Position numbers and translations under genes: made by a program
Shown here: positions 10,955-43,512 of the stretch, piece after piece
Layout: each line of letters starts with the position of its first letter
How positions within the stretch are numbered: the first letter of the stretch is position 1
The notes under the pieces: model-generated
Databases searched by the model: none
Told to the model about the DNA's origin: nothing
The model's input: the letters and a program-made list of their open reading frames with translations, nothing else
IMG/VR virus record: IMGVR_UViG_3300045988_100685
Origin: a virus
Strand: one strand, 5' to 3'
Length of the DNA: 43,512 nt

Positions 10955-12934
10955 ATGGACGACAACAACAATCTTGATTTACAGAGCCTTGCGGTGGAAG
11001 TAAAAGCCCCGAAAATAGGCAAGGAGCAGCTTTCGGCATTTATGCAGGTGCTTGAAAAGTACAAGAGCGGCAAGCAACGCCTTGAAGCTCGAGTGATTGA
11101 GAGCGAGGAGTGGTGGAAGCTGCACAATAATCAGATCGCCCGCATCAAGGACGGCATAGAGCAGCCGGGAGAGCTGCGGAACGCCTCCGGCTGGCTGCAC
11201 AACGTGCTTGTATCAAAGCACGCAGACGCAATAGAGGCATATCCTGAGCCTAACATCCTGCCGAGAGAGCAGGGCGACAAGGAGGAGGCGAAGCGGCTGT
11301 CCTCCATCCTCCCCTGCATATTGGAGCAAAATCATTTTGAGGAGGTATACGACGAGGCGCAGTGGCAGAAGCTCAAGACCGGCACAAGCGTATACTCGGT
11401 TGTGTGGGATCAGAATAAGCTTAACGGCTTAGGCGACATCAGCATAAGCAATGTAAACCTGCTCAACATCTTTTGGGAGCCGGGCATAAAAGACATACAG
11501 GACAGCCTCTATGTGTTCACAACGAAGCTTGTAGACAATGCCATTCTTAAAGGGCAGTACCCGCAGTATGCGGACAAGTTCGCGGCGCAGAGCAGCTTTT
11601 CTCCGGCGAAGTTCCTTTACGACGACCGCGTGGACACCACGGACAAGAGCACGGTTATAGAGGTGTACTACCACACCGCCAACAGCCAAGGAAAGCGCGT
11701 GCTGCATTACTGCAAGTTTGTCAATGATGTTGTATTGTACGCCACCGAGAATGACACGGAGCAGCCCACAAAGCCACAGACAATGGTAAACCCGGAGACC
11801 GGCGCGGCGGAGGTTGTGCAGGTTCCGGCAGGGCTTCCAGCATCGGAGCGGGGCATATACGACCACGCGCAATATCCGTTTGTGTTTGATGTGCTGTTCC
11901 CCATCGAGGGCAGCCCCTGCGGCTACGGATATGTTGACCTTTGCAAGGGCGCACAGGAGCAGATTGACACCATGGGTAAGGCTATGGTGGACAACGCCGT
12001 TGCAAACAGCACGCCGCGTTACCTCAGCAAGCAAGGCGGCGGAATCAATGAAGATGAATTTATGGATTTGCGCAGGCCGATTGTGCATTACAGCGGCGCA
12101 AGCGCGGACATTGTTCCTATAAGCACAACCGCATTGCAAGCAAACAGTCTAAATTACTACAACGCAAAAATTGAAGAGCTGCGGCAGGTGAGCGGCAACA
12201 CCGAGAGCGCCACGGGACAGGCTACCTCCGGCGTTACGGCGGCATCCGCCATTGCGGCGTTGCAGGAGGCAAGCGGCAAGGGTAGCAGAGCGAGCACGCT
12301 TTCATCGTACAGGGCGTTTGGGCGCATAAATGAGCTGCAAATTGAGCTTATCAGACAGTTCTATGATATGCCGCGCACCTTCCGCATTATCGGACAGCGG
12401 GGCGCGGAGGAGTATATAAGCTACAACAATGCACAGCTGCAGGCGCAGTATCAGGGCAGCATCGGCAATATTGATTTAGGCTTCCGCCTTCCGGTGTTTG
12501 ACATCAAGGTTTCGGCGCAGAAAAAGAATGTATATACCAAGGTGGCGCAAAACGAGCTTGCTTTGCAGTTCTTCCAGCTTGGATTCTTCAATCCGCAGGT
12601 TGCTGACCAAGCACTTGCGTGCATTGAAATGATGGATTTTGACGACAAGGACAAGATTTCGCAGATGATAGCGCAAAACGGCACTATGTATCAGCAGCTG
12701 CTTTTGTATCAGCAGCTTGCGCTTTCCCTGGCACAGGCGAGCGGCAGGACGGATATAGTACAGGGGCTTGCTTCGCAGATTACCGGGCGGCCGATTGAGA
12801 CGGTTTCGGGCGGCGGTGAGCAGGCGGCGAGCCTGCCGCAGAGCGACAACGTTGCCGGGATAGACAGCGAGGAGCACACCCGAGTAAAAAACGCCAGAGC
12901 GCAGAGCAATAAAGCAAGCCAGCCGGAGGAATAA
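10955..12934 (+). CDS. Portal protein
   Basis: 659 aa, directly after TerL. The N-terminal L..F..VLEKYKSGK..LE.RVIESEEWWKLHN motif is typical of a Firmicutes phage portal family, and the C-terminal tail is acidic and flexible. Confidence 0.8.
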   Translation: MDDNNNLDLQSLAVEVKAPKIGKEQLSAFMQVLEKYKSGKQRLEARVIESEEWWKLHNNQIARIKDGIEQPGELRNASGWLHNVLVSKHADAIEAYPEPNILPREQGDKEEAKRLSSILPCILEQNHFEEVYDEAQWQKLKTGTSVYSVVWDQNKLNGLGDISISNVNLLNIFWEPGIKDIQDSLYVFTTKLVDNAILKGQYPQYADKFAAQSSFSPAKFLYDDRVDTTDKSTVIEVYYHTANSQGKRVLHYCKFVNDVVLYATENDTEQPTKPQTMVNPETGAAEVVQVPAGLPASERGIYDHAQYPFVFDVLFPIEGSPCGYGYVDLCKGAQEQIDTMGKAMVDNAVANSTPRYLSKQGGGINEDEFMDLRRPIVHYSGASADIVPISTTALQANSLNYYNAKIEELRQVSGNTESATGQATSGVTAASAIAALQEASGKGSRASTLSSYRAFGRINELQIELIRQFYDMPRTFRIIGQRGAEEYISYNNAQLQAQYQGSIGNIDLGFRLPVFDIKVSAQKKNVYTKVAQNELALQFFQLGFFNPQVADQALACIEMMDFDDKDKISQMIAQNGTMYQQLLLYQQLALSLAQASGRTDIVQGLASQITGRPIETVSGGGEQAASLPQSDNVAGIDSEEHTRVKNARAQSNKASQPEE

Positions 12935-21080: not shown

Positions 21081-24000
21081 ATGAATTGGGCTGAAAGAAG
21101 AAGCATATACGAAAACAACCAGAAGACAGGCTCTAATACTACTGTAAGTTCAAGCGACCAATGGGCGGAACGCCGGAAGAAGTATAATTCCGGCGATATT
21201 ATTACTCCGCAGCAAAGAATGACGCAGGAACGAGTGCAAAGACAGCAGCAACAGTATTTGACGCAAAAAGCCGAATACGACAAGCAGCAGGCGGAGTATA
21301 ACCGCCTGCTGGGGCTTGACCTTGAAGAAGCGGGCAGACTGCGCACGAGCGCGAAAACCAGCCTTGATATGCTGAAAGATGCGAGAACCAAAATCGGGGC
21401 GGAGCTTAACACCCAAACTACAGGCATCAAGGCTTCCGGTATGAATCACAAAAAAATATCGGCGCTGCGAAATCAGATTAAAAGCCTTGATGAGCAAATT
21501 GCCGCAGCACAAAAGAGCTACGATGACAAAACATACGATTACCAGTACGCAAACCTATATCAAAAGCAAGCGGAACAGGAAAAGCTGATTAAGGAGCACG
21601 GCGATTATCAAGCGACCGTAAGCGATGCCATAGACGACCCTTATTATCGTAAAGTTAATAATCTTTTGGGCGTAAAAAGCAAAGCCGACCTTTACAGCAA
21701 AAGAAGCCAAAACAAGCTGCTGGGTGAAAACAGCGGCAAAATCATGTCGGAAATGACCGACGAGGAGCGCAACACCTATAATTACATTTTTGACACCGAG
21801 GGCAGAGAAGCTGCAAAAGAGTATATGGAAATACTTGAATACAGCCTTGCTTCGCGGTACAAAAAGAGCAGAACCGAGGACGCGCAGGAGATGGCGAACA
21901 GCGGCTTCGGAGGAGCGGCGGCGGGCACTGCACTGTCCATTATGGAGGGCGCAGTTAGCGACACCGGCGGAGGATTGGGCTTTTATCTCCAAAAAGGATT
22001 GAGGGATATAGGCTGGGCGGACGACAGCCTTCCTATAAACTACGAAAAAACCTTTGCGACTTCCACATGGAGCAATGCGCTTCAGGAACAGGTTTCGCAG
22101 AATATTACAGACAGCGGCAAAGACCTTTTCACTATCGGAGATTATACGTTCAACACCGGCAAAGCCGGAGCTTTTCTTTACGGCACAGGCGTTTCCATTG
22201 CGGACAACATGGCGCGAAATCTTATTTTTGCACCGTTTGGCAGCGCCGGAACACTGACCGTAATGGCGGCGAGAGTGGCAGGACAGAGCGTAAACGAGGC
22301 GCTTTCCCGCGGAGCTACGGAGGACGAGGCGGCCGCTTACGGCGTATCATCCGCAATAGGTGAGGTAATAGGCGAGGTCGCACCGCTTGATCATTTGCTT
22401 GGTATGGTAAACGCCGACCCTAAGACCGGGAAAGAGTGGCTTAAAGCTATTCTGAAACAGGCGGGGCTTGAAGCGTCCGGCGAGGCTATTACCACCGTGT
22501 GGAACGACCTTGTTTCCGCACAGGCGCTTGGCGATTTAAGCGACTACAATATGGCAAAAGCCGAGTATATACAGCAGGGCATGAGCGAAAAGGAAGCGGA
22601 AAAGCAGGCAACCAAGGACGCGCTGCACCAGATTTTCCTTGACGCGCTGGGCGGAGCGATTTCCGGTGTTGCAATGGGCGGCGGCGCTTCGGTTGTAAAC
22701 CGTACGGTTAGCCGCGCATCCGGCACGAGAGCGGAAAGCAATATAGCCTCCTCCCTTGTTTCCGACATTGACGAAAGCGAAGTTCAGAAGCGGGCGGCAA
22801 GGTATGAGAAAAAGGGCATGAGCACCGAGGAAGCCACTCAGAAAACCCGAGAAGACATCCAAAATAAAAAGGCAAAAGAATACACCGAGCGGGGAATGAG
22901 CGCCGAGGAGGCCGCAGGGGCGGTCAAGGCGGACGATATTGCCACGGAGGAAAGAAACAAAAAGCTGCGCGAGGAAATTCTTGACCGAGGGCTGAATGCC
23001 GAGGAAGGCAGCAAAGCCAACACCGCCGCAAAAGCAATTCAGGAAAAGCTGAAAAGCGGCGAAAGCGTGAGCGCCGACGAGTGGAAGAACCTTATCAAGA
23101 GCACCAGAGCGCAGGTCAGCCTTGCCGAAACCAAGGACGCCATAAAAAAAGCCGCCCAAAATAGCGGAGAAAGCCTTGCGGACACCGATGTTGACGTTAT
23201 GGCGGCGGCGATGGAAAAGAACTTCCAGGGCAAGAATATGTCCGAGGCGGAAAATAAGCTGATTAAGGGCAGCGAGGCGGCGAAAAAGGCTTACAGCGAG
23301 CTTACCGGGCTTAATTACGAGACGGGCAAGGTTATCCCCGAAATTGTTGAAGAAAAGAAAAAAGCGGCTATAAGGGACATTCTGGGCGAACAGGTGACCG
23401 ACTATGCCGGAGAGAACCGCAGCAACGGCTACAAAAACGCCCTTTCCAAGACATACAGGGCGTACCTGAGCCTTGTTGAGGAAGCTAACGCCGGAGATAT
23501 AGCGCAGTTACAGGCAAAGCTTAGCCCGGAGGGCTATGCGCAGCTTTTCAGCGAGTTCTACGAGTTCGGCAAAAGCGGTGAATATTCCGCTGATGTGCTG
23601 AAAGCAGACCTTGAAAAGCGCGGAGCAGTTCGCGGGGAAGCGCTGAAAGCCCTTGAAACCGCGTATGAGCTGGGCAGAAGCGAAGCTAAGAGCGGCGGAA
23701 TAAAGAACGCAAAGGTGCGGCAGGCGGAGCTTAACGCAAAAAAGCACGCCGAAAGGGAGAAAAAAGCGACTGCGCCGAAGGGCGTTGCACGCTCCATCAC
23801 CGAAAAAGAGTTTAAAACCGACGCGGCGAAGAACGCCGGGGCAAAGAGCATTGATATGAAGAAGCATTTTTCGCAGAAGCAGAGATATGCTATCGCTGTT
23901 GCACGCGAGTTTGCCAAAATGACCGACATAAACATTGTTTTTTATCAGACCGAGGACGGCAAGGGCGCGAACGGCTGGTATGACCGCGAAACGGACACTA

Positions 24001-27000
24001 TTTATATAGACCTTTTCTCCGGCTTTAACAATGAACAGGCAATGCTTAGAACCCTTTCTCACGAGCTGACGCACTTTATGGAGAAGTACAGCCCGGAGCA
24101 TTACGAGGAGTACAAGCAGTTCCTACTTGAGTATTACTACAACAAGGACAACGGCGAAACCCTAAGCAGGCTTGTTGAACAGGAAAAGAAGCTTGCGCCG
24201 AACCAAAGCGCCGAGTATTGGCAGAATGAAATCGTTGCGAACGCAAGCGAGATGTTCATAAACGACGAATCCGCTATGCGGGCGCTTATAAGCGAGCACG
24301 CGGACGTTGCGCAGACGGTCGACAACTGGTTCAAAAAGATGAACTATGCCCTGCGCCGGGCGTTCAAGGGCGTTGTGACGAGCGGCAGCGCCGAGGCGGA
24401 CGCCGCGAAGGAGCTGCAAGCAAACGTTGAAGCTTTTTCCGAAGCGCAGAAACGATGGAGCGCCCTGCTGAAAGAAAGCGTTGAAGCGAAAAAGGCGGTC
24501 GGTACGGCGGAGGAGAGCGGAGATGTAAGGTTCTCAAAACGAGTTGATTCCGACTACATGAAAGCCGTTGAAAACGGCGATACAGAAACCGCGCAGAAGC
24601 TTGTGGACGAAGCGGCAAGGGCGGCGGGGTATGATTCCGAACCGATCTATCACGGGACACAAAACTTCGGCTTTACAAAGCTTGATGTGTCAAAATCTGA
24701 TGATGAAATTTCTTTCTTTGCGACTTCAAACCTCGATATGGCGCAAACATACAGCGGTAAAAGCGGAACTAAGAAAATAAATGAAGCTCTTGGCGATATA
24801 AACAGTCTTACGGAAGAAGAAGTTGTTGACAGATTAAACAAAGAATCTGTGACGGACGGCTATGGGATGGGAAGCAAATACCGCATTATGCGCCCGGCGG
24901 ACGTAAAGGCGTTTTTGGCTGATGTAGACAAGAGAATTGAAAAGCTTGATGATGTTGTGGAAAGAAAAACCACGGAATATGCCGATAGGCTTGCAACGGA
25001 TTTTAACGATGCGAATTTACGAGCGCACAGTAAACTTGTTGCACTTTCTGAGGCTTTGCAATTTTATAACTACGACAAGATGTCAACGCCGCTTTGGATG
25101 CTGCTAAATAATACAGATGTGTTTAACAGCGCCGAAAAAAAGCGTTATGGTAATCTTGAAGCTGATATAAGGCTAAGAAACGGACTTACGGCGAAAAAAG
25201 GTATTGACGAAGGAGCGGTTATAAGAGAAAGCCTCGACCGTTACGAAATAAGAGTTAAAACCTTTGAGGAAGCAAAAAACGAGCTTGCGGCAAACGCCGC
25301 TTCCGGCAACTATGTTCTTCGCGGCAAAACGGATGGATTGCTCGAAATCGACGGCAACGGTCACAACTGGAACGATATTTTTGCAACGCTTGAACCGAAA
25401 GGCGGAAATACATTACGGGCGGAGTATGACTTTTCGACAAGTTCCGTTAAATTGAGCGACAAAAACGGAGAATTTGCGAATATCCCGGCAAGAACCCTTT
25501 CGGAAGCTGAGCCTGCTATGGCAAGGGCAATAACAAAGCATTACGGAAGTTATTTTGCTTCAACGGTTTTTGCGCAGGCAAGAGACCAACTTCGCAGCAG
25601 TGCAACCGCAAAGGTTGCTATAAAAACAACCGGAAAAACCGATACGCGAAATATTGCACAGTTTGCAAAAGAACAGGGCTACCGTGGAGTTAAAATTACT
25701 GATATTTACGACAACGGCGGCAGGGGCGCGAATGCAGACGCAGGAAATGTATACATATATTTTAATCCTCAAGAAGACGTTAAATCCGCCGACGCAGTAA
25801 CCTATGACGACGAGGGCAAGGTTATCCCGCTTTCCGAGAGGTTTAATGCGAAGAATGATGATATTCGGTATTCGATGCGGGGCGAAAATTGGAAGCCCAC
25901 TCTTGACAAAGTGGAGTGGAGAATTGTAAACTATGCTATAGAAAACAAAACCGGCAAAGAGCTTACGGAAACGACAGACTACTTTTTCCGCAAAGAAAAA
26001 GGAAAAACGGTGTTCGGTATTTACAGCACAGACGATTCAACACTGCTTTATGCCGTGCACGGAGAAAGAGCGACAAGTGAACACGACTTTTTAATCTTTG
26101 TTTTGGAGGCAATGAGCAATGAGAATATCGATAGAAAAAATGCAGGAAATACTGGTACGCTGCTTAGCCAGATTGGGTTGCAGCAAAATAGGCGTTCTGG
26201 TAATAATGGCGGAGCTGCAGAACCCGGACGATACGTGGGAAATGTTAACGTATATTTCGGAAAATCCAAAAGCGACGCCAGCGGAGCTTTACGAAATGTC
26301 CTCAAAAATATCTTCGGCGAGAGACAGACTGATGGAAGCAGAGAAAGCGGAGAACCCGGAGGAAGCAGAGGATTAACCGTTTCCGATCTCGGCAAAATCC
26401 AATACCAGCTCCGTATTGAGGACAAGAACCGCCTTGACATTCTGGATAAGCAGGAAACGAGGCTGACCGCAGACCTTAAAACCCTTGAAAAAGCGTATGC
26501 GGAAGCAATCAGAGCCGAGTACGAGCGCAGCATAAAGCCCAGCGAGGAAACGAGCAGACGCGCCGCAGAAATAAACAAAAAAGCGGCGAAGCGCTATATG
26601 AACGAGGTGGGCGCTACATTCCACGTGCCGAAGGACGAAAGAAGCCTGTATCTGCTGCCGATAATCAACGAGATAATCGACAAGGGACCTACCATAAGCG
26701 AAAGTGAGGGGCTGATTGAGCAGCTTTACAGAGAGGCTTACCGCCATTCGCAGGAGTATATTGTGGACGACGGAGGACTTTATAAAAAGGAGCGGGACGC
26801 TCTGCGCAATATGGCGATATATGTTGACCCCGGCACGAGGAGCGACGTTGGCGATTACGAAAGATTCCGTAAAAATAATATGGGAAGCTTGAAGCTTACA
26901 GGTGACCCAAGCGCAAACTCCCTTGACGGTTTGTATGATATGCTTGCGAACAACTACCCCGATTTTTTCAGCGGCTCTACCGACGGCGCAGAACAGCTTT

Positions 27001-30000
27001 ATGAGCTTTCCGCTTTTATGAAGAACAAGGGCAGAGTTGAGAGCATCGGCGACTATATGACCGAGGACGAGTTTGTGAAATGGGCTATGAACGGCGACAG
27101 CGGTCTTGACACGGAGCTTGATAATCTGTTCGACAAAACCGTTGGCAGCTTCCTTTCCGAGGCGAGCCGAAAGGAAAAAGAACGCACGAAAGCGGCAAAG
27201 GTCAACAACGCAATGGAAAATGTCCGCAACGCGGTGGAACATTACGGCGCGGCACAAGACTACGCCAGAGCAGAGAGTTTCCTTGCAGGTCAGATTGAAC
27301 AGGGCGCCAAGGACGCGGCGAAGCTGCGTGTTACCATCGAAAACTACGAGAACAGAATTAAGGCTTACCGTAACAAGCTTAGCGAAGTGCGGGAAAAACG
27401 CGACGCGGCGCTTAAAGCACGGCAGGAAGCTTTTGAAAACTACAAAGCGGAGAGAGCTGACAGCGCCAGACGCGAGGTGCTGCGCAAGCGTATAGCCAAG
27501 GGCGTTAAGTCTCTTAATACTATGCTGCTCAATCCTACGGACAACAAGCACATCCCACAAGACCTGCGCGGCGCTGTGGCGGGCTTCCTAAGCAACTTCA
27601 CCGACAACTCGAGTGTTTTCTCGAAGAGCAAGCTGGACGCGCTTGCAAAGGCGTACAGCAAGATTGCAGATGAAAGCAGCGACCTCAACGACCTTTACGA
27701 CCCCGACATTAAGGATTACCTTGACAAAATGGAGAAGACCGTCGGGGGCAAGCGGCTTTCGGAGCTTTCCGCAGATGAGCTGGAGCTTGTAAACGATGTT
27801 ACAAATTACTTTACTCACATTGTCCGAGACGGAAACAAGCTGCTTGTGGACGGCAGACGGCAGAATATTTCCGAGCTTGCTTCCGAAACCGTGAGGGCGG
27901 CGGAGAACCACGGATATAAGACCTATCGCGGCGGTACACTCAGCGGAGCGGTAAACTGGGCGGACAAATATCTCAATTACGATAATATAACGCCGTATTA
28001 TTTCTTCAACCGAATGGGCGGCGGTATGAAACGGCTGTATAACGATATGCTGTACAACAGCCAGCTTAAATATTCGCAGGATATAAACGAAGACCAGAAG
28101 TTTATGGCGAGTGTTTATGAAAAGTATCACGTCTGGGATTGGTCGAGCGCTAACCAGAAGAATAAGAATGACATTTTGAGATTTGAAACCGCAAGAAAAG
28201 GCGCGTGGCTTGAAATGACCCGAAACGAGGTACTTACGGCTTATGCTACCTATAAGCGCGGCAAAGCTCTCGGCGATGGCGCGGCGCATATGAAGGAGGG
28301 CGGTATAGTCGTAAAATCAAAAACGCCCGAAAAGTTTATGCAAGAGTATGTGAAAAGCTCTAAGGGCGTGCAGCTTGACATTGCGGATATTCAAAAAATG
28401 TTCGGATTCCTTACCGACGAGCAGAAAGCTTGTGCAGATGCGGTGGTTAATTACCTTACCACGGTGGAGGGCGCACGAAGAAATGAAACTTCTATGGTGC
28501 TTTACGGCTATAAAAAGTTTAACGAGACCTACTATTTCCCCTACCGTGTTGCAAGCGATTACACTAAGAGCCACGCCGGGCAGGAAGTGAGCCCCGATGG
28601 TGTGAAGCAGGTCGGCGGAAGCAAAATGCTTAAAAATATGGGCAGCGCGAAAACGCTTACCCCGAACGCGAACGCCGCAATCGTGATTGACGACTTTTTC
28701 AAGGTTGTTGCGGAGAGCATGAACGACACTGCGCGCTACCACGCCTTTGCGGTGCAGCAGGATAACTTTATGAGGGTGCTCAATTACAAGGATACGGTTG
28801 ACGCGGAGCACGGCAGCACAAGCGTTAAACAGGCTATTCGGGACAGCTACGGCACGGAGGGTATTAACTACATCACCGGGCTTATGGGCGACAGCTTTGG
28901 CGGAGCGGTGCAGCTCAACGACGATAATGTTTTTGGCAAGCTTTTCGGCAAATTTAAGAAAACCGCGGTTGCGGCCAACCTTTCCGTTGCGATTCAGCAG
29001 CCTTCGGCGATTATGAGGGCAACGGCTATGATTGACGGAAAGTATCTTGCCAAAACCGTACGTCAAAAGAACGCGCTTGAAGAAATGTACGATTACAGTT
29101 CCACGGCGTTCCTGAAAAATATGGGGCGGTTTGACATAGGCACAGGCAGAAGCGCGGAGCAGTACATTTTGAAGCCGGAGCTGAAAGGCAAGGACTATGT
29201 TAGACAGCTTTTTGCGACCGGAGAATACAGCACCGGAGAGCTGGACGACGTGACCGGGTTCCTCTCCGAAAAGGCAGACTGGGTAACCTGGGGGCACATT
29301 ATGAACGCCGTTATGGCGGAAATTGAGGACACCACGGATCTGAAACGCGGAACGGAGGAGTTTAAGCGGGCGGCAGGACGGCGGTTTGATGAGGTCGTGA
29401 ACGCAACGCAGGTATACGACAGCATACTTGTAAAAAGCCCAATGATGCGGGACCAAAGGGGAATTGCACAGATAATATCGGCGTTCAAAATGGAACCAAC
29501 GCTGAGCTACAACCTCTTTGTAGATTCCATCAGCAAGGAAAAGGTGGCTGCCAAAAGTGCGGCACGCGGGCTTTCGGCGCTTGCGCTTAATGTTCTTGCA
29601 AATGCACTGCTTAAATCTATAATCGGAGCATTGCGCGACCGCGACGAGGACAAAACCTACCTTGAAAAGTACACCGAGAAGCTGGTAAACAACATAGTAA
29701 GCGACCTTATTCCGATTCTTAATTTGCCGGGCGTAGACGCAATCTCCGAAGCGATTCAGGGCTTTACGACGGAGCTTCCCGAAATGGGTATGATTTCGGA
29801 CACCGTGAGCGCGGGCAATAAAGCACTCAAAAAAATAAGCAAAGGCGACTGGGGCGGTGCTTTGGGAGAATTGACCGTCGTATTCAACCTTTTCGGACTG
29901 CCTGTACGGAACGTTTACAGAGACTTTGCGGCAATCTTCAACACAGCGGTCAATACCAAGCCGCTGAAAGATACAAGCTTCGCGGGGATATATGAAGCGG

Positions 30001-30350
30001 CGGTTGACGGTTTTTTGGATTCGAGCACTATTTACGGAGCCGGAAAAGCTTTAGGACTTATAGACACGAGCAAGGCGGCAGGAATTAAAAAGGCAATGCG
30101 AAAAGGCGATTCTACAGAAATTCGCAAAGCTACAAACAAGCTTATCAAAGAGTATGTTGCGAGCGGTAAAAGTGAGAATGAAGCTAAAGGCTATATCAAA
30201 GGAGCTTTGACGAACTACTGGAAGCCACTGTACCAGAACGCGAACAGCGCGGAACGGGCAAAAATCCGCAAGGCGCTTTACGCTACCGGAATTTACGAGA
30301 ACACCGATGCGGTCGTGAAGATGTGTGACAACTGGCTTAAAGACGATTAA
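21081..30350 (+). CDS. Giant (3,089 aa) polyvalent-type virion/ejection protein
   Basis: A single uninterrupted ORF. It has an N-terminal coiled coil and a Gly-rich hydrophobic block (about aa 275-560). An HExxH segment follows (GWYDRETDTIYIDLF...LRTLSHELTHFMEK, H994-H998, nt 24060-24074). Next comes a segment DSDYMKAVENGDTETAQKLVDEAARAAGY...IYHGT..FGFT.F...FFATS...AQTY...NVYIYFNPQEDVKSADAVTYDDEGKVIPLSERFN, like the ADP-ribosyltransferase modules of polyvalent proteins. The C-terminal region is long and carries hydrophobic helices. Confidence 0.85.
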   Translation: MNWAERRSIYENNQKTGSNTTVSSSDQWAERRKKYNSGDIITPQQRMTQERVQRQQQQYLTQKAEYDKQQAEYNRLLGLDLEEAGRLRTSAKTSLDMLKDARTKIGAELNTQTTGIKASGMNHKKISALRNQIKSLDEQIAAAQKSYDDKTYDYQYANLYQKQAEQEKLIKEHGDYQATVSDAIDDPYYRKVNNLLGVKSKADLYSKRSQNKLLGENSGKIMSEMTDEERNTYNYIFDTEGREAAKEYMEILEYSLASRYKKSRTEDAQEMANSGFGGAAAGTALSIMEGAVSDTGGGLGFYLQKGLRDIGWADDSLPINYEKTFATSTWSNALQEQVSQNITDSGKDLFTIGDYTFNTGKAGAFLYGTGVSIADNMARNLIFAPFGSAGTLTVMAARVAGQSVNEALSRGATEDEAAAYGVSSAIGEVIGEVAPLDHLLGMVNADPKTGKEWLKAILKQAGLEASGEAITTVWNDLVSAQALGDLSDYNMAKAEYIQQGMSEKEAEKQATKDALHQIFLDALGGAISGVAMGGGASVVNRTVSRASGTRAESNIASSLVSDIDESEVQKRAARYEKKGMSTEEATQKTREDIQNKKAKEYTERGMSAEEAAGAVKADDIATEERNKKLREEILDRGLNAEEGSKANTAAKAIQEKLKSGESVSADEWKNLIKSTRAQVSLAETKDAIKKAAQNSGESLADTDVDVMAAAMEKNFQGKNMSEAENKLIKGSEAAKKAYSELTGLNYETGKVIPEIVEEKKKAAIRDILGEQVTDYAGENRSNGYKNALSKTYRAYLSLVEEANAGDIAQLQAKLSPEGYAQLFSEFYEFGKSGEYSADVLKADLEKRGAVRGEALKALETAYELGRSEAKSGGIKNAKVRQAELNAKKHAEREKKATAPKGVARSITEKEFKTDAAKNAGAKSIDMKKHFSQKQRYAIAVAREFAKMTDINIVFYQTEDGKGANGWYDRETDTIYIDLFSGFNNEQAMLRTLSHELTHFMEKYSPEHYEEYKQFLLEYYYNKDNGETLSRLVEQEKKLAPNQSAEYWQNEIVANASEMFINDESAMRALISEHADVAQTVDNWFKKMNYALRRAFKGVVTSGSAEADAAKELQANVEAFSEAQKRWSALLKESVEAKKAVGTAEESGDVRFSKRVDSDYMKAVENGDTETAQKLVDEAARAAGYDSEPIYHGTQNFGFTKLDVSKSDDEISFFATSNLDMAQTYSGKSGTKKINEALGDINSLTEEEVVDRLNKESVTDGYGMGSKYRIMRPADVKAFLADVDKRIEKLDDVVERKTTEYADRLATDFNDANLRAHSKLVALSEALQFYNYDKMSTPLWMLLNNTDVFNSAEKKRYGNLEADIRLRNGLTAKKGIDEGAVIRESLDRYEIRVKTFEEAKNELAANAASGNYVLRGKTDGLLEIDGNGHNWNDIFATLEPKGGNTLRAEYDFSTSSVKLSDKNGEFANIPARTLSEAEPAMARAITKHYGSYFASTVFAQARDQLRSSATAKVAIKTTGKTDTRNIAQFAKEQGYRGVKITDIYDNGGRGANADAGNVYIYFNPQEDVKSADAVTYDDEGKVIPLSERFNAKNDDIRYSMRGENWKPTLDKVEWRIVNYAIENKTGKELTETTDYFFRKEKGKTVFGIYSTDDSTLLYAVHGERATSEHDFLIFVLEAMSNENIDRKNAGNTGTLLSQIGLQQNRRSGNNGGAAEPGRYVGNVNVYFGKSKSDASGALRNVLKNIFGERQTDGSRESGEPGGSRGLTVSDLGKIQYQLRIEDKNRLDILDKQETRLTADLKTLEKAYAEAIRAEYERSIKPSEETSRRAAEINKKAAKRYMNEVGATFHVPKDERSLYLLPIINEIIDKGPTISESEGLIEQLYREAYRHSQEYIVDDGGLYKKERDALRNMAIYVDPGTRSDVGDYERFRKNNMGSLKLTGDPSANSLDGLYDMLANNYPDFFSGSTDGAEQLYELSAFMKNKGRVESIGDYMTEDEFVKWAMNGDSGLDTELDNLFDKTVGSFLSEASRKEKERTKAAKVNNAMENVRNAVEHYGAAQDYARAESFLAGQIEQGAKDAAKLRVTIENYENRIKAYRNKLSEVREKRDAALKARQEAFENYKAERADSARREVLRKRIAKGVKSLNTMLLNPTDNKHIPQDLRGAVAGFLSNFTDNSSVFSKSKLDALAKAYSKIADESSDLNDLYDPDIKDYLDKMEKTVGGKRLSELSADELELVNDVTNYFTHIVRDGNKLLVDGRRQNISELASETVRAAENHGYKTYRGGTLSGAVNWADKYLNYDNITPYYFFNRMGGGMKRLYNDMLYNSQLKYSQDINEDQKFMASVYEKYHVWDWSSANQKNKNDILRFETARKGAWLEMTRNEVLTAYATYKRGKALGDGAAHMKEGGIVVKSKTPEKFMQEYVKSSKGVQLDIADIQKMFGFLTDEQKACADAVVNYLTTVEGARRNETSMVLYGYKKFNETYYFPYRVASDYTKSHAGQEVSPDGVKQVGGSKMLKNMGSAKTLTPNANAAIVIDDFFKVVAESMNDTARYHAFAVQQDNFMRVLNYKDTVDAEHGSTSVKQAIRDSYGTEGINYITGLMGDSFGGAVQLNDDNVFGKLFGKFKKTAVAANLSVAIQQPSAIMRATAMIDGKYLAKTVRQKNALEEMYDYSSTAFLKNMGRFDIGTGRSAEQYILKPELKGKDYVRQLFATGEYSTGELDDVTGFLSEKADWVTWGHIMNAVMAEIEDTTDLKRGTEEFKRAAGRRFDEVVNATQVYDSILVKSPMMRDQRGIAQIISAFKMEPTLSYNLFVDSISKEKVAAKSAARGLSALALNVLANALLKSIIGALRDRDEDKTYLEKYTEKLVNNIVSDLIPILNLPGVDAISEAIQGFTTELPEMGMISDTVSAGNKALKKISKGDWGGALGELTVVFNLFGLPVRNVYRDFAAIFNTAVNTKPLKDTSFAGIYEAAVDGFLDSSTIYGAGKALGLIDTSKAAGIKKAMRKGDSTEIRKATNKLIKEYVASGKSENEAKGYIKGALTNYWKPLYQNANSAERAKIRKALYATGIYENTDAVVKMCDNWLKDD
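26119..26376 (+). CDS. Candidate embedded 85-aa ORF in an alternative frame of the giant gene (uncertain)
   Basis: GGAGG (26105-26109) lies 9 nt upstream of the ATG. The product MRISIEKMQEILVRCLARLGCSKIGVLVIMAELQNPDDTWEMLTYISENPKATPAELYEMSSKISSARDRLMEAEKAENPEEAED looks like a real helical protein. Over the same nucleotides the long frame is low-complexity and GGA-rich. Confidence 0.35.
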   Translation: MRISIEKMQEILVRCLARLGCSKIGVLVIMAELQNPDDTWEMLTYISENPKATPAELYEMSSKISSARDRLMEAEKAENPEEAED

Positions 30351-30359
30351 AAAAATATG

Positions 30360-30393
30360 AGTGCGGGGGTAGAAGCTCCCGCACTTTTATTTT
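30360..30393 (+). terminator. Intrinsic terminator after the giant gene (GCGGGGGTAGA family)
   Basis: AGTGCGGGG pairs with TCCCGCACT, with loop GTAGAAGC, followed by TTTTATTTT. Confidence 0.7.
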
Positions 30394-30423
30394 ACACTGA
30401 GATTGTAAGGAGGCGGTTTATGT

Positions 30424-32163: not shown

Positions 32164-32853
32164 ATGAGCAACAACATAGCAGAGGCAATAGCGGCAAAGA
32201 ACGAGGTTATAGCCGCACAGGGCACAAGCCTTGATACAGTGCTGTCAGCACTGGAGGGTAAAGCGGCGGGGAGCGGAAGCGATATATCCCTTGGGATTAC
32301 ATCTGCGGCAGTCGGGCAGACAATCAAAGTCAAGGCGGTAAACGAGCAGGGTATGCCTACTGCGTGGGAAGCTGCGGATATGTTTGCGGACGAGCAGTGG
32401 GAACTCCTCGGAACTCTTGATGCAAGCACAGGAGATGTTTTGCAACTCGATTTTTCTAATCCAGTCAAAAAACTTTATTTTTACAGCTCATTGTGTGACA
32501 CCGCCGGGGAACAATATAGTGCTTCAACGACCGTATACAGGCAAGTGGCATTCAAAGTAGGTGATACATGGAGAGATGTTAACAGCTTTAAGATTGGATG
32601 TTGCAAGCATAATTGGAGTTGGAAGACCAGATATTGGCTGGAATGCGGAGCGAACTTGCCTTATCCAAAAGGAGAATGGACTGAAACTCTTTCTGCTGGT
32701 AATGTTGCAATAAAATTAACACCGCTTGTGATTGGCAATAATAATCAATATTCCAGCGGACTCGTATCAGGAATACGCTTTAGCTTGGTACTCCCAGATG
32801 GCACAGAAAATACGGCATTGGGAACCATTAAAGTTTGGGGTGTAAAAGCATGA
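32164..32853 (+). CDS. Hypothetical fibre-associated / receptor-binding candidate
   Basis: ATG at 32164, two nt after the upstream stop, preferred over the track start at 32083. 229 aa with an N-terminal helical region followed by a beta-rich region. Confidence 0.5.
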   Translation: MSNNIAEAIAAKNEVIAAQGTSLDTVLSALEGKAAGSGSDISLGITSAAVGQTIKVKAVNEQGMPTAWEAADMFADEQWELLGTLDASTGDVLQLDFSNPVKKLYFYSSLCDTAGEQYSASTTVYRQVAFKVGDTWRDVNSFKIGCCKHNWSWKTRYWLECGANLPYPKGEWTETLSAGNVAIKLTPLVIGNNNQYSSGLVSGIRFSLVLPDGTENTALGTIKVWGVKA

Positions 32854-32918
32854 GCACTGTTGATATTCGTATAAGCAAGTGCCCGAAAAGTGGAGGGCAA
32901 AGGTGGAGGAGGTGCTGA

Positions 32919-33617
32919 ATGAGCCTTAACGACAACACAAGCAAAATAGCAAGCGTGCTTGCAAAGGTGAACGCACTGCCCGCACAGCTTGACACTTCCG
33001 ATGCCACGGCTGTGGCGGAGGATATAGTCAAGGGGCAGACTGCGTATGTCGACGGAGTAAAGGTGACGGGAACGCTGGAGAAAGCAACGCAGATTACCGG
33101 AAACGTGACGAGCACAGCAATACTGACCCCGAGGGTGATGTTTTCCGGCAAGACAAGCGAAGCATTTGCTATAGACGCAAACAAGGGCATAACGCTCACG
33201 ATGCCCGCGGTTGACCTCGGCGATGCGGGAGACGCGGATGTGGCAAAGGGCAAAACCTACACGAGTGCGAACGGATTTAAGCGGACGGGGACGAAAGAGG
33301 AGGCTGTTATAGAGACGGCGGCTCTTACCCTGACAGGAAACGCCTTAGCTCCAGGTGTTACGGTATGGTATATAAACGGTAGTGGGAACCTACAAACTGA
33401 AACTTATACCGCAGACGCTGTGCTCACGGTAAAGAAATTTAACATAGTGTTCTTTGCGGGGCAGCAGCTTACAACAGTTGTGGACGGAGCCGAGGAAAAC
33501 TACCTTGTTTCGGCGATGGGCGGAACGCCGCAGCCGTTCGTTATGACGGATGGTATAAGCTATTCTTCCGTTATGGTTGAGGGAGACTTGACGGTTAATG
33601 CGGCAGTGAAAGTTTAA
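32919..33617 (+). CDS. Tail fibre-like protein
   Basis: 232 aa. Repeated motifs DATAVAEDIVKGQTAYVDGVKVTGTL and GDADVAKGKTYTSANGFKRTGT are typical of Firmicutes phage fibre proteins. SD ggaggagg lies upstream. Confidence 0.6.
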   Translation: MSLNDNTSKIASVLAKVNALPAQLDTSDATAVAEDIVKGQTAYVDGVKVTGTLEKATQITGNVTSTAILTPRVMFSGKTSEAFAIDANKGITLTMPAVDLGDAGDADVAKGKTYTSANGFKRTGTKEEAVIETAALTLTGNALAPGVTVWYINGSGNLQTETYTADAVLTVKKFNIVFFAGQQLTTVVDGAEENYLVSAMGGTPQPFVMTDGISYSSVMVEGDLTVNAAVKV

Positions 33618-33638
33618 GAAGCATTTTTCGATAACTTC

Positions 33639-33667
33639 TTGACAAAAGCATTACACAGTGCTATACT
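33639..33667 (+). promoter_or_regulatory. Near-consensus sigma70/SigA-type promoter with extended -10
   Basis: TTGACA (33639-33644), a 17-nt spacer ending in TGC, and TATACT (33662-33667). Confidence 0.75.
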
Positions 33668-33673
33668 ACAGTC

Positions 33674-33830
33674 AAGGGTTAATCCCTTTTGTCACCGCGT
33701 GAGCGCTGATTTTTCCCCGCGTAAGCGGGGGTGGCTCGATCAGAGCGCAAGCGCACGCGGTTGTGGATTGAAATCTTAGTGCGGCGAAAGCTGTGAAGTA
33801 AAAAGCTCTATCGCAAGATAGGGCTTTTTG
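33674..33830 (+). ncRNA. Structured non-coding RNA (about 155 nt) containing a type I-C CRISPR repeat-like module
   Basis: It is bounded by the promoter above and a terminator at 33804-33829, and no credible ORF is present. There are three GNRA-capped helices. The core reads GTC-ACCGCGT ... ACGCGGT-T-GTGGATTGAAAT (33691-33774), whose 3' 12-mer equals the conserved tail of type I-C repeats. Confidence 0.6.
33804..33830 (+). terminator. Intrinsic terminator of the ncRNA
   Basis: AGCTCTATC, loop GCAA, GATAGGGCT (one G-U pair), followed by T5. Confidence 0.75.
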
Positions 33831-33847
33831 CTTATAAAAATATTTTT

Positions 33848-33879
33848 AGTGCGGGGGTAGAAGCCCCCGCACTTTTTTT
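33848..33879 (+). terminator. Second, tandem terminator (GCGGGGGTAGA family)
   Basis: A perfect 10-bp stem AGTGCGGGGG/CCCCCGCACT with loop TAGAAG, followed by T7. Confidence 0.75.
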
Positions 33880-33908
33880 ATACACTGGTGCTGTAAGGAG
33901 GGGTGATA

Positions 33909-34751
33909 ATGCCGATAGGAGTAATCAAAATTTATAACCCCACAACCGGAAAGTATGAAGAGTTTCCGGCGTATATGGGGCCTACCGGGCCGACGGGCCC
34001 AGCGAATGGACCTGCGGGACCGGCGGGCGCTACAGGCAGCCCGGGCAAAGACGGCGAAACGCCTTACATCGGCGACAACGGAAACTGGTTTGTCGGAAGC
34101 AACGACACCGGAAAGCCAAGTCGTGGTGAGAAAGGCAGCGATGGTAGCCCGGGTAAAGATGGCACGGACGGAAAAGATGGCAGCCCGGGCAAAGACGGGA
34201 CGGACGGGCACACGCCTGTAATAACCGCCACGAAAACAAACGGCGTGACTACCGTAAAAGCCGACGGTGTAGAGATAGCAACAATAAACGATGGCGCAAA
34301 GGGTGAGCAGGGCGATCCAGGCAAAGATGGCAGCGCTGGAAGTGTGGGGCCTACCGGGCCGACTGGACCAGCGGGACTTAATCAGATAGGCGCGACGACC
34401 ACGACCACCTTTGCGAACGGCAAACTGTTAAAAGCTCAGGGCGGAAAAATCGTTGAGGCTGTTGCGGGAACGGATTATATTGTTCCGCCAACCAAAGTTA
34501 CGGGAACAGGAGCTGTAACGGCTACGCTCGGAAACGGCAAGGAATACAGCTATGCGGCGGTAACGTCTATTACCTTAACCGCCGGAGAGGGCGAAAGCCA
34601 CGGATTTATACGGTTCGGAGCGTCAAATCCGACAGTAACACTCAGCGGATTCAGCGCAGCGGACGGCGATATTACTTCCGCAGCCGCGTCAACTGTGTGG
34701 GAGTTCAGCGCGGTGGACGGATATATAATCTTTAAGAATTGGAGTGCTTAA
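33909..34751 (+). CDS. Collagen-like repeat tail fibre protein 2
   Basis: ATG at 33909 with SD aaggagggg upstream; the track start is GTG at 33903. Gly-X-Y tracts are present (GPTGPTGPANGPAGPAGATGSPGKDGE, GEKGSDGSPGKDGTDGKDGSPGKDGTDG, GAKGEQGDPGKDGSAGSVGPTGPTGPAG). Confidence 0.8.
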   Translation: MPIGVIKIYNPTTGKYEEFPAYMGPTGPTGPANGPAGPAGATGSPGKDGETPYIGDNGNWFVGSNDTGKPSRGEKGSDGSPGKDGTDGKDGSPGKDGTDGHTPVITATKTNGVTTVKADGVEIATINDGAKGEQGDPGKDGSAGSVGPTGPTGPAGLNQIGATTTTTFANGKLLKAQGGKIVEAVAGTDYIVPPTKVTGTGAVTATLGNGKEYSYAAVTSITLTAGEGESHGFIRFGASNPTVTLSGFSAADGDITSAAASTVWEFSAVDGYIIFKNWSA

Positions 34752-34752
34752 T

Positions 34753-35556
34753 ATGATGAGCACAAGGCGAAGACTGCTTATGCAAAGCAAAAAAGCATCG
34801 GCGGCAGAAACAATAGTTGTTTACGATTACGATACCGCACCGCAAACGCTTAACGGAACCGTCTTGAGCGGCAGTTATACGGAGCTCGGAAGCGCCGGAC
34901 TTAAAATGCGTGTTATTGGCAGTGACAGCTTGTCCTGCGTAATAGGCACTTATGATTTGACCGGCTATACAATGCTTGAGGTTGTCGGCGGCAAAAAGGA
35001 TTACGCAATAAGTACGCTGAGCGTTGCAATTCAGAACGCCGTTGGAGCGATATTAAAGACATTAGACCTTAAATCTGTTTTGGCGTCAAATGATATGAGC
35101 AATTTTACGGCGGCAAACGGCAGCTATTCCACGCATTATCTCGATTTGTCCGATGTGAGCGGCGAATGCAGCATTAAATTAGCAATTTCGGCGAGCGGAA
35201 CAACGCAGACCAACGTTGCAGCGTACAAGTACATTGCATTTTTAGCATCCGGCAGCACGGATCCGACGGTTGACCGCATAACGGTTACGGGTGTGGGAGA
35301 CGAAACAGCGGGATATGTTATGATTGACGGCACTAACATTTATCAAACTACGGTGCTTGATGTTGCGCACGGCGCACACACCGTTAAAGCGGTAGCATAC
35401 AAGGTTGTTATAAACGGTGCCGAACACACGGCGGGCAGCACGGATGCGCTGATAGAGCGTACAGAGGTTATAAGCGGCAATATAACAGTGAATATTGAGA
35501 AAACAGTTGAAGGTGGTTTCTTCGGAAACACTTATTATACTATAACGATTACATAG
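34753..35556 (+). CDS. Hypothetical fibre-distal / receptor-binding candidate
   Basis: ATG at 34753, just after the upstream stop. 267 aa, beta-rich. Function is inferred from position only. Confidence 0.5.
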   Translation: MMSTRRRLLMQSKKASAAETIVVYDYDTAPQTLNGTVLSGSYTELGSAGLKMRVIGSDSLSCVIGTYDLTGYTMLEVVGGKKDYAISTLSVAIQNAVGAILKTLDLKSVLASNDMSNFTAANGSYSTHYLDLSDVSGECSIKLAISASGTTQTNVAAYKYIAFLASGSTDPTVDRITVTGVGDETAGYVMIDGTNIYQTTVLDVAHGAHTVKAVAYKVVINGAEHTAGSTDALIERTEVISGNITVNIEKTVEGGFFGNTYYTITIT

Positions 35557-43049: not shown

Positions 43050-43512
43050 ATGAAAGGCTACAAGGCATTTGACAAGGGGCTTGTGTGCCGCGGAAAGCAG
43101 TATGCGGAGAACACGGTCTTTGAGGAGGACGAATCGGTTATTTGCAAAAATGGTATGCACTTTTGCGCAGAGCCGATGGACGTGCTGGATTTTTACCCGC
43201 CGGAGAGCGAGTTCGCCGAGGTGGAAGCCTTGGACGAAGTGGAAACCGACGATAACAGAAAGTATGTGACAAAAAAGCTTAAAGTTGGGTCGAAGATGAG
43301 CCTGAACGAGCTTATAAGCGCACAGGTCAAAATTGACCTTCAAAAAGCGAAAGAGGAAGGCAACGGCGGTTACGCACAGGGCTACAAAGGACACGCCGCC
43401 GCGCAGGGTAACGAGGGTCACGCCGCCGCGCAGGGTAACTATGGTCACGCCGCCGCGCAGGGCTACAAAGGACACGCCGCCGCGCAGGGTAACGAGGGTC
43501 ACGCCGCCGCGC
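43050..43512 (+). CDS. 5' part of the repeat-containing early protein (continues at nt 1 after circularisation; about 252 aa in total)
   Basis: SD aaggagg (43034-43040) with ATG at 43050. The N-terminus MKGYKAFDKGLVCRGKQYAENTVFEEDESVICKNGMHFC resembles a widespread phage family of unknown function. It is followed by G-x-x-G-H-A-A-A-Q nonapeptide repeats, and there is no stop before the window end. Confidence 0.8.
   Translation, partial: MKGYKAFDKGLVCRGKQYAENTVFEEDESVICKNGMHFCAEPMDVLDFYPPESEFAEVEALDEVETDDNRKYVTKKLKVGSKMSLNELISAQVKIDLQKAKEEGNGGYAQGYKGHAAAQGNEGHAAAQGNYGHAAAQGYKGHAAAQGNEGHAAA
43365..43512 (+). repeat. 27-bp tandem repeats (continue at nt 1-118)
   Basis: Units ggctacaaaggacacgccgccgcgcag / ggtaacgagggtcacgccgccgcgcag / ggtaactatggtcacgccgccgcgcag lie head to tail. 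Confidence 0.9.

Follow-up and report, generated by a model that had tools for sequence, protein, structure and literature searches.

Phages carry solitary CRISPR repeat units that act as RNA anti-CRISPRs (Racrs), and a type I-C representative, RacrIC1, has been tested. With RacrIC1, phages plate again on a type I-C strain, the particles formed by RacrIF1 are aberrant ones of Cas6f and Cas7f, and units labelled I-C are frequent in the accessible part of the published list of phage solitary repeat units (PMC10651486). In type I-C repeats themselves, a 7-bp stem with a short loop is flanked by overhangs of 2 nt (5') and 11 nt (3'), and the cut falls after nt 21; by mutagenesis, the parts read by Cas5c are the stem base, U22-G23-G24 and the 3' overhang, and not the loop or the 5' overhang (PMC8524198). 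Here we analysed a predicted small-RNA gene at positions 33639-33829 of the IMG/VR virus record IMGVR_UViG_3300045988_100685, a DNA stretch of 43,512 nucleotides referred to as the window. In this RNA a type I-C repeat look-alike appears to be split by an insert, which bears a second repeat-like hairpin, and we lean towards a decoy role of the Racr type. Positions are those of the window, and all features of the RNA gene are on its plus strand.

Type I-C-like frame and its natural variants

The repeat likeness is most evident in a natural variant of the gene, L136 (a contig from NCBI assembly GCA_963616115.1; compared loci are given L numbers), which is without the entire 54-nt insert and has a 32-nt unit, GTCACCGCGTTCGCGCGGTTGTGGATTGAAAT, laid out as GTC-ACCGCG-TTCG-CGCGGT-T-GTGGATTGAAAT. 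A covariance model was built from 16 units labelled I-C, 14 of which were taken from the accessible part of the filtered solitary-repeat-unit list in the supplement to the Racr paper (93-100% identity to known repeats; PMC10651486), the remaining two being one further solitary unit and the type I-C repeat of PAO1. The model matched L136 end to end with 21.2 bits (E 0.008); its best unbiased background match in 659 kb of unrelated phage and prophage DNA was 16.4 bits. The sequence-only reading had seen a type I-C repeat look-alike core in the gene, and the insert-free variant, a canonical 32-nt I-C-type unit and the top match of the model, supports this. BLAST of the 32-nt unit against plasmids and phages returned only GC-rich chance matches and no array.

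In the window, the 5' half of the frame (33691-33700) consists of GUC (33691-33693) and the basal stem strand ACCGCGU (33694-33700). The opposite side (33755-33763) is made of ACGCGGU (33755-33761), bulged U33762 and G33763, the partner of C33693, with the predicted Cas5c cut after G33763. A 54-nt loop domain (33701-33754) organised as a three-way junction replaces the usual 4-5-nt repeat loop. The 12-mer GTGGATTGAAAT (33763-33774) has one exact copy in the window, at an expectation of 87,024/4^12 = 0.005, the figure given in the sequence-only reading. Positions 33764-33774 of it, UGGAUUGAAAU, match exactly the type I-C tail that gives the 11-nt 5' handle, and the handle was predicted by folding to be mostly unpaired. 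It should be added that one-mismatch copies of the 12-mer are present at 12619-12630 and 28205-28216 (GTGCATTGAAAT, GTGGCTTGAAAT), inside the portal gene and a giant open reading frame (ORF); the three matches with at most one mismatch, versus 0.25 expected in the window, are probably due to chance.

Variants of the RNA gene were gathered from contigs encoding homologues of the upstream 232-aa fibre-associated protein, of which there were hundreds, and from metagenome contigs retrieved in a single pattern scan for the invariant 20-mer of the 5' end. This yielded 15 distinct sequence variants (family A), all in human-gut phage contigs, where the unrelated upstream flanks number at least eight and the downstream gene is one of several. 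Conservation runs from the -35 box and ends at the terminator, which is in line with the stand-alone RNA gene proposed before, and at the nucleotide level its conservation exceeds that of the protein gene next to it by 5-12 percentage points. The locus had no match in the INPHARED phage collection, and exact-pattern scans of IMG/VR with the handle junction and the 5' leader gave only chance matches inside coding genes.

The structure was tested on an alignment of 14 sequences (A4), and comprised, besides the terminator, three hairpins (5', inner and tail), the basal stem and two junction helices, in which 30-34 pair with 194-198 and 87-90 with 187-190 of A4. Over 45 pairs, 99.7% of 592 cells were paired and three pairs had compensatory changes; with shifted partners the pairing fell to 26-62%. 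A compensatory change in the basal stem was looked for and found among the 14 sequences, namely one G-C to A-U replacement in L037.

Variation is distributed unevenly along the RNA. GUC is invariant in all 14 sequences (0/3 columns variable), and the handle varies in one of 11 columns, with U or C as its last base, T or C being also the last base of the I-C repeats used for the model. The A/U-rich linker that follows (33775-33780) varies in all six columns. Next to it, the tail hairpin GCGGC-GAAA-GCUGU (33781-33794) has all cells paired, shows compensatory changes in two of its five pairs and forms across A4 as GCGGC/GCUGC, GUGGC/GUCAC or GUGAC/GUCAC. Loop length among homologues is 4 nt (L136), 37-38, 54-55, 80 or ~145 nt. 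Judged from the variants, the pattern of constraint matches the published determinants of Cas5c, with GUC, stem base and handle kept and the loop free in length, and an unpaired 11-mer frozen beside a freely drifting linker has the look of a protein-binding site. C33693 can pair with G33763 across the bulged U; the pair is direct in L145 and L150, which are without the bulged U before GUGG and thereby have the canonical junction, and in all members of the second family described below.

Some variants of the gene deserve a separate mention. L145 and L150 possess, inside the loop domain, a 91-nt segment that has GACGG...CCGUC at its borders and includes GGUUGUGGA, in which part of the stem/handle junction is copied, and in L146 a 26-nt extension of the loop domain forms a 9-bp hairpin. 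Broken copies of the gene were found on two 1.1-kb metagenome contigs, L140 and L151. In L140, the inner hairpin runs into the reverse complement of the sequence located downstream in L147 and L148, which may be an inversion, and in L151 GGGGGTGGC is followed by an unrelated ATPase-like gene; both could be rearrangements at the hairpin or chimeric assemblies.

Nested hairpin and a second family

The loop domain contains the unit UUUUUCCCCGC-GUAA-GCGGGG-GUGGCUCG at 33710-33738. The sequence-only reading had taken it for a second repeat-like hairpin of type I-C; its likeness to a repeat held, whereas the I-C model misses it and it scores as I-E-like. A type I-E model built from 12 repeats matched 33710-33738 (UUUUUCCCCGCGUAAGCGGGGGUGGCUCG) at full length on the plus strand with 22.2 bits (E ~6e-6), and the next best matches were 13.2 bits elsewhere in the window and 15.0 bits in 659 kb of unrelated loci. 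The U-rich 5' flank, the CCCCGC/GCGGGG stem and the tetraloop characteristic of I-E repeats are present. The I-E handle of 7-8 nt (AUAAACCG or GUGAUCC) is replaced by GUGGCUC(G/A/U), in which only GUG and one C agree, and a type IV-A1 repeat likewise comes close to the hairpin; the label is therefore kept at I-E-like and the subtype assignment is a loose one.

Near-identical CCCCGC-GUAA-GCGGGG repeats with a 61-nt period occur in phage mini-arrays (L156-L158, L160). Mini-arrays or solitary units were found in L156:8009-8090, L157, L158, L160, L154 and L155; the mini-array layout is repeat, 32-33-nt spacer, repeat and terminator, and some are enclosed by a long-range stem, which doubles as the terminator.

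IMG/VR was also scanned for an I-E-like hairpin followed within 36 nt by an I-C handle. Five contigs were retrieved (L153, L159, L161, L162 and L163; family B), in which the basal stem and surrounding sequence differ from those of family A, the I-C frame and the I-E-like insert being common to both. Their layout is GU-C, a basal stem of 8-10 bp and a multi-helix loop domain, then G-UGGAUUGAAAU. The loop domain holds one I-E-like hairpin or two (in L161), with loops GUAA, CCAC, CUUC or AGUG, and GUGAC(U/C/A)C as the counterpart of the I-E handle. Basal stems are of the AAGGCAC/GUGCCUU versus AAGACCUG/CAGGUCUU types, with three compensatory pairs in five sequences. The handle in family B is not independent evidence, since it was part of the search pattern, as was the I-E-type hairpin. 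By sequence comparison, the nested design of I-C frame and I-E insert is recurrent and not a quirk of one lineage. In predicted folds, both families place a stable structure within a few bases of the handle, and a further conserved hairpin of family B bears the motif CUGGAAUGG in its loop.

The RNA gene is directly followed in many relatives by another small-RNA gene, not present in the window, that has its own promoter (TTGACA-17-TAATAT) and terminator (L037:3910-4012, also L038, L133, L134, L136, L143, L145, L150 and L164-L167). Its core reads GC(U)G-CGGGGU-UUAGUCC-ACCCUG-UGAUUUUAAC, a 33-nt hairpin-plus-tail of repeat-like geometry. L136 differs from the others by A-U/G-U and G-U/G-C changes in the stem, and the unit has no score with the I-C model. 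An antisense relation to type I-B repeats was considered, but what it has in common with the reverse complement of some of these is no more than a 10-mer.

Transcript anatomy and phage context

The promoter proposed in the sequence-only reading was recovered with all its coordinates: TTGACA (33639-33644), a 17-nt spacer, TG (33659-33660) and TATACT (33662-33667) make up an extended -10 promoter (33639-33667; TGcTATACT), which scores 11/12 plus the extended -10 and is the best promoter-like match within 32500-35000 in a promoter scan. The -35 box, the spacing and TGCTATAMT are retained across all homologues, and the spacer exists as two unrelated sequences. This predicted promoter is situated ~25 nt 5' of GUC, inside the limit of at most 250 bp upstream applied to Racrs.

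The predicted non-coding RNA of ~156 nt extends over about 33674-33829, where the -10 box served to place the start and the terminator to place the end. Its fold has -73.9 kcal/mol (z = -5.9), and none of 200 shuffles was as good. The 5' hairpin AAGGG-UUAAU-CCCUU (33674-33688) is variable in one of 17 columns, where the change of A-U to G-U keeps the pair. The intrinsic terminator (33800-33829), read from sequence and fold, has a 13-bp stem (33800-33812/33817-33829) with a GCAA loop and a U run; all its alignment cells are paired with one-sided changes only, and it was absent from the list of a simple terminator scan. The GNRA loops noted earlier are at their positions, GTAA at 33721-33724, GAAA at 33786-33789 and GCAA at 33813-33816.

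The RNA gene cannot be coding, because its variants differ by frame-breaking indels (1, 17, 26, 53 and 91 nt); the sole ORF is a 46-codon frame with a TTG start, and the earlier claim of a non-coding gene thus stands. None of the 4227 Rfam families matched the window or the minimal variant at the gathering score; sub-threshold matches in the window were driven by terminators, apart from CRISPR-DR28 on the minus strand (E 0.86). A role as a cis-regulatory leader of the downstream fibre gene was ruled out by the change of the downstream gene with context and the stop of the RNA at its own terminator, and a role as a phage attachment site by the distance of 6.5 kb to the integrase.

The window of ~43.5 kb is a complete-looking temperate phage genome from human-gut metagenomes, with genes for an anti-repressor, RecE/RecT, terminase, portal, major head protein, M23 peptidase and integrase, an ORF of 3089 aa and collagen-like tail fibres. 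As had been stated, neither a CRISPR array nor cas genes were found in the window, and likewise no tRNA genes. The RNA unit is thus solitary, inside a 291-nt intergenic gap of a mobile element. The gene is flanked by a stop codon and a terminator/ribosome-binding-site cassette that is repeated in the window, and therefore behaves as an inserted, self-contained cassette. The repeated element, of 68 nt, is located at 30346-30413 and 33834-33901 (82% identity) ahead of two late genes and consists of a GC hairpin terminator followed by ACACTG...GTAAGGAGG, the ribosome-binding site; the second terminator at 33848-33873 belongs to it and not to the RNA gene.

In L033 (3247-4148) a HicA/HicB toxin-antitoxin pair replaces the RNA gene after the homologous fibre-associated gene, and the slot therefore accepts different accessory cargo. 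The 3089-codon ORF occupies 21081-30350; relatives have a 2413-aa version with a PBECR3 domain, which is arranged in another order with respect to fibre genes and RNA cassette. A 27-nt tandem repeat, CACGCCGCCGCGCAGGGTAACGAGGGT, is present in ~4 copies at both window ends (8-121 and 43392-43512), in keeping with the end-to-end assembly of a genome that is circular or terminally redundant. Scanning of GTDB genomes with the upstream fibre protein revealed only relatives of at most 43% identity, none of which carried the RNA gene; these belong to Oscillospiraceae and other Clostridia and are the sole hint at the host. The 10-kb flank of a 97%-identical fibre gene on a 62.8-kb contig contained phage genes only.

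Proposed decoy model, rival explanations and known systems

We consider it fairly probable that the gene encodes a solitary-repeat-type RNA anti-CRISPR, i.e. a decoy of the Racr type, directed against type I-C. A strong sigma-70-type promoter would drive a stable RNA of ~156 nt, capped by the 5' hairpin and the terminator hairpin. The RNA would display GU, a stem closed by C-G and UGGAUUGAAAU, the loop, which Cas5c ignores, having been expanded into a structured domain. Host Cas5c would bind, probably cut after G33763 and remain on the 11-nt handle of the 3' product, where a Cas7 backbone could not form, because only ~6 single-stranded bases precede the stable hairpin and the terminator. Dead-end particles may thus trap Cas5c along with its recruited partners and keep them from real CRISPR RNAs (crRNAs), and the I-E-like hairpin in the loop could do the same to Cas6e in hosts with a type I-E system.

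More tentatively, and with doubts prevailing, the RNA may be a modular decoy for several subtypes, where the I-C loop serves as a docking bay for other repeat mimics and the hairpins after the handle as roadblocks for Cas7. The cargo of the bay under this joint reading would be a Cas6-binding hairpin of type I-E/IV-A-like character here, and two of them in L161. In that case a single short transcript would act against several CRISPR systems simultaneously and disarm them, and the recurrence in two families together with the tandem second small-RNA gene would mark an RNA-only anti-CRISPR island in gut phages.

Several observations weigh against the assignment to anti-CRISPR decoys. The function is a prediction from sequence. 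In the window, the I-C model sees the handle only (16.1 bits, E 0.16), as the insert stops it there; what carries the argument for the window is therefore its homology with L136 and the other natural variants and not the score. Family A is shallow (14 aligned sequences at 85-95% identity with only three compensatory pairs), for which reason the covariation figures are supportive rather than decisive, and most of its variants carry an extra U between stem and GUGG, which canonical repeats are missing. Furthermore, UUAAUCC of the leader is complementary to GGAUUGA of the handle (33674-33688 versus 33765-33771; 7 bp including one G-U). The local 5' hairpin is the minimum-energy fold in six of seven variants, but the window itself prefers the leader:handle pairing, which would compete with Cas5c binding and for which the decoy model gives no explanation. 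A conserved AAUC motif of family B, 2-3 nt after the handle, can pair with it as well. Finally, the neighbours are collagen-like tail-fibre genes and a glycosyltransferase and not an anti-defence island, and no recognisable acr or aca gene was found nearby among the proteins tested with PHROGs, Pfam and PADLOC, although Racrs often, if not necessarily, lie close to acr genes.

An unlikely alternative, though one to be taken seriously, is a structured phage small RNA unrelated to CRISPR, which might, for instance, regulate a phage or host mRNA or bind another protein, with the repeat likeness being a coincidence or a relic. It would accommodate conserved parts that the decoy model does not need, the 17-nt leader and the 17-nt segment UCAGAGCGCAAGCGCAC, and it agrees with the site among tail-fibre genes and with the fact that the window alone offers only the 12-mer and the stem. 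Coincidence is, however, at odds with the fit of the 32-nt insert-free variant to the full I-C repeat model, with the essentially invariant unpaired 11-mer beside a fully variable linker and with family B, which keeps GU-C...G-UGGAUUGAAAU while its stem changes. Moreover, a second repeat type is nested in both families, and such a twofold coincidence is unlikely; for the pattern of I-E hairpin and handle in IMG/VR the rough expectation was well below one, and five loci were found. It is very improbable that the gene is a captured fragment of a host CRISPR array, either with no decoy role or as a homology patch for recombination with host arrays. Phages of the same collections do carry mini-arrays of I-E-like repeats (L156-L158, L160), and broken or rearranged copies of the gene exist (L140, L151), but the gene has a near-consensus promoter and a terminator dedicated to it and is under purifying selection in its different variants and contexts, its elaborated loop does not suit a passive piece, and 32 bases are little homology for recombination.

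Two further explanations accept the interaction with Cas proteins and differ in its purpose. The sequence-only reading had offered a phage guide in the handle-spacer-3' hairpin arrangement of a crRNA, and a reading of this kind, which we regard as quite unlikely, would be a crRNA-like regulatory guide (Cracr/crlRNA type), in which Cas5c cuts the pseudo-repeat and the downstream sequence steers host Cascade to repress a cas promoter, a CRISPR-guarding toxin or another host gene. The succession of pseudo-repeat, downstream sequence and rho-independent terminator is that of CracrVA1, and viral Cracrs predicted against type I-C systems exist (10.1101/2024.10.29.618823). What disfavours a guide is that nowhere is the RNA more variable than at the seed positions adjoining the handle (6/6 columns), while positions 7-20 form a hairpin with compensatory changes and the remainder is the terminator; since the hairpin is kept by compensatory changes, structure and not sequence is selected there. 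No match beyond chance was found in the window or the phage collection for the 21-38-nt stretch, and the search for protospacers that had been suggested likewise gave nothing above chance there with 33775-33812. Finally, host Cas5c might be borrowed as a mere processing enzyme that releases one or two functional small RNAs, with no CRISPR inhibition. The preservation of the predicted cleavage site and the stable structure of both predicted products, the 5' loop-domain fragment and the 3' fragment, speak for this; nevertheless, neither product has a candidate target or function, the loop domain is dispensable in L136 and the phage would depend on a defence system missing from many hosts, which leaves this explanation with very little probability.

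Returning to the decoy of the Racr type, its template, the genuine type I-C (Dvulg) repeat, shares with the RNA the GU overhang, a 6-7-bp stem closed by C-G and the 11-nt UGGAUUGAAA(U/C) tail, as well as the total of 32 nt in L136, where the loop is UUCG; the nearest I-C repeat in the accessible part of the list is I-C:19402, GTCACACCCTTCGTGGGTGTGTGGATTGAAAC. The window unit differs in its 84 nt with a 7-bp stem and a 54-nt loop domain, compared with 32-33 nt and a 4-5-nt loop, in the mostly bulged U at the stem base and in being single, with no array, spacers or cas genes. Phage mini-CRISPR arrays are comparable as repeat-type sequences on phage genomes with a near-identical I-E-like hairpin, but here there is no second repeat and no 32-33-nt spacer, and the unit sits in the loop of another repeat.

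Among the described RNA anti-CRISPRs, RacrIC1 from a Bifidobacterium pseudocatenulatum prophage (PMC10651486) is also a solitary I-C look-alike on a temperate phage, with no array or cas genes, with a stem and a (G)UGGAU(U/C)GAAA(C/U) tail, and with Cas5c as the expected partner. RacrIC1 is a plain 34-nt unit located 11 nt downstream of acrIC5 in a bicistronic transcript (PMC10651486), whereas the present gene has its own promoter and terminator, no recognisable acr neighbour, a 54-nt loop insert with the I-E-like hairpin and two further hairpins, one capping the 5' end and a covarying one in the tail. Of the idea of a type I-C RNA anti-CRISPR advanced in the sequence-only reading, the anatomy of a repeat mimic is retained; this would not be the first I-C version, RacrIC1 having been published already (PMC10651486). 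No part of the RNA sequence was found in the accessible part of the solitary-unit lists (PMC10651486). With RacrIF1 and other solitary units, the RNA shares, by prediction, a promoter within 250 bp and the principle of a highly expressed repeat mimic that competes with crRNAs and gives aberrant Cas subcomplexes. In RacrIF1, Cas6f occupies the hairpin and Cas7f the 5' flank; in the present RNA, Cas5c would recognise the stem base with the 3' handle, and the structured flanks should exclude Cas7, unlike in RacrIF1. Viral Cracr/crlRNAs (10.1101/2024.10.29.618823) have a pseudo-repeat, a downstream segment and a rho-independent terminator in common with it, along with the predicted use of host Cas proteins, but their pseudo-spacers have at least 9 PAM-proximal (protospacer adjacent motif) matches to a cas or creT promoter (10.1101/2024.10.29.618823), while the corresponding bases here are hypervariable and followed by the covarying hairpin.

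No description of nested or split repeat mimics was found in the literature searched, the coverage of which was incomplete and is no proof of novelty. RNA anti-CRISPRs were first described in 2023 and were found via intact solitary repeats; searches for intact repeats probably miss split units, and the number of RNA anti-CRISPRs may be underestimated. As the RNA family illustrates, all the features that Cas5c reportedly reads can be kept in a repeat mimic that a large insert divides. If the nested I-E-like unit is active, this would be the first case known to us of one small RNA built against two CRISPR subtypes, and a natural map of the repeat positions tolerated by Cas5c. Moreover, the natural series of loop lengths is ready-made for experiments on how Cas5c recognises its substrate and for inhibitors of type I-C editors that are compact and programmable.

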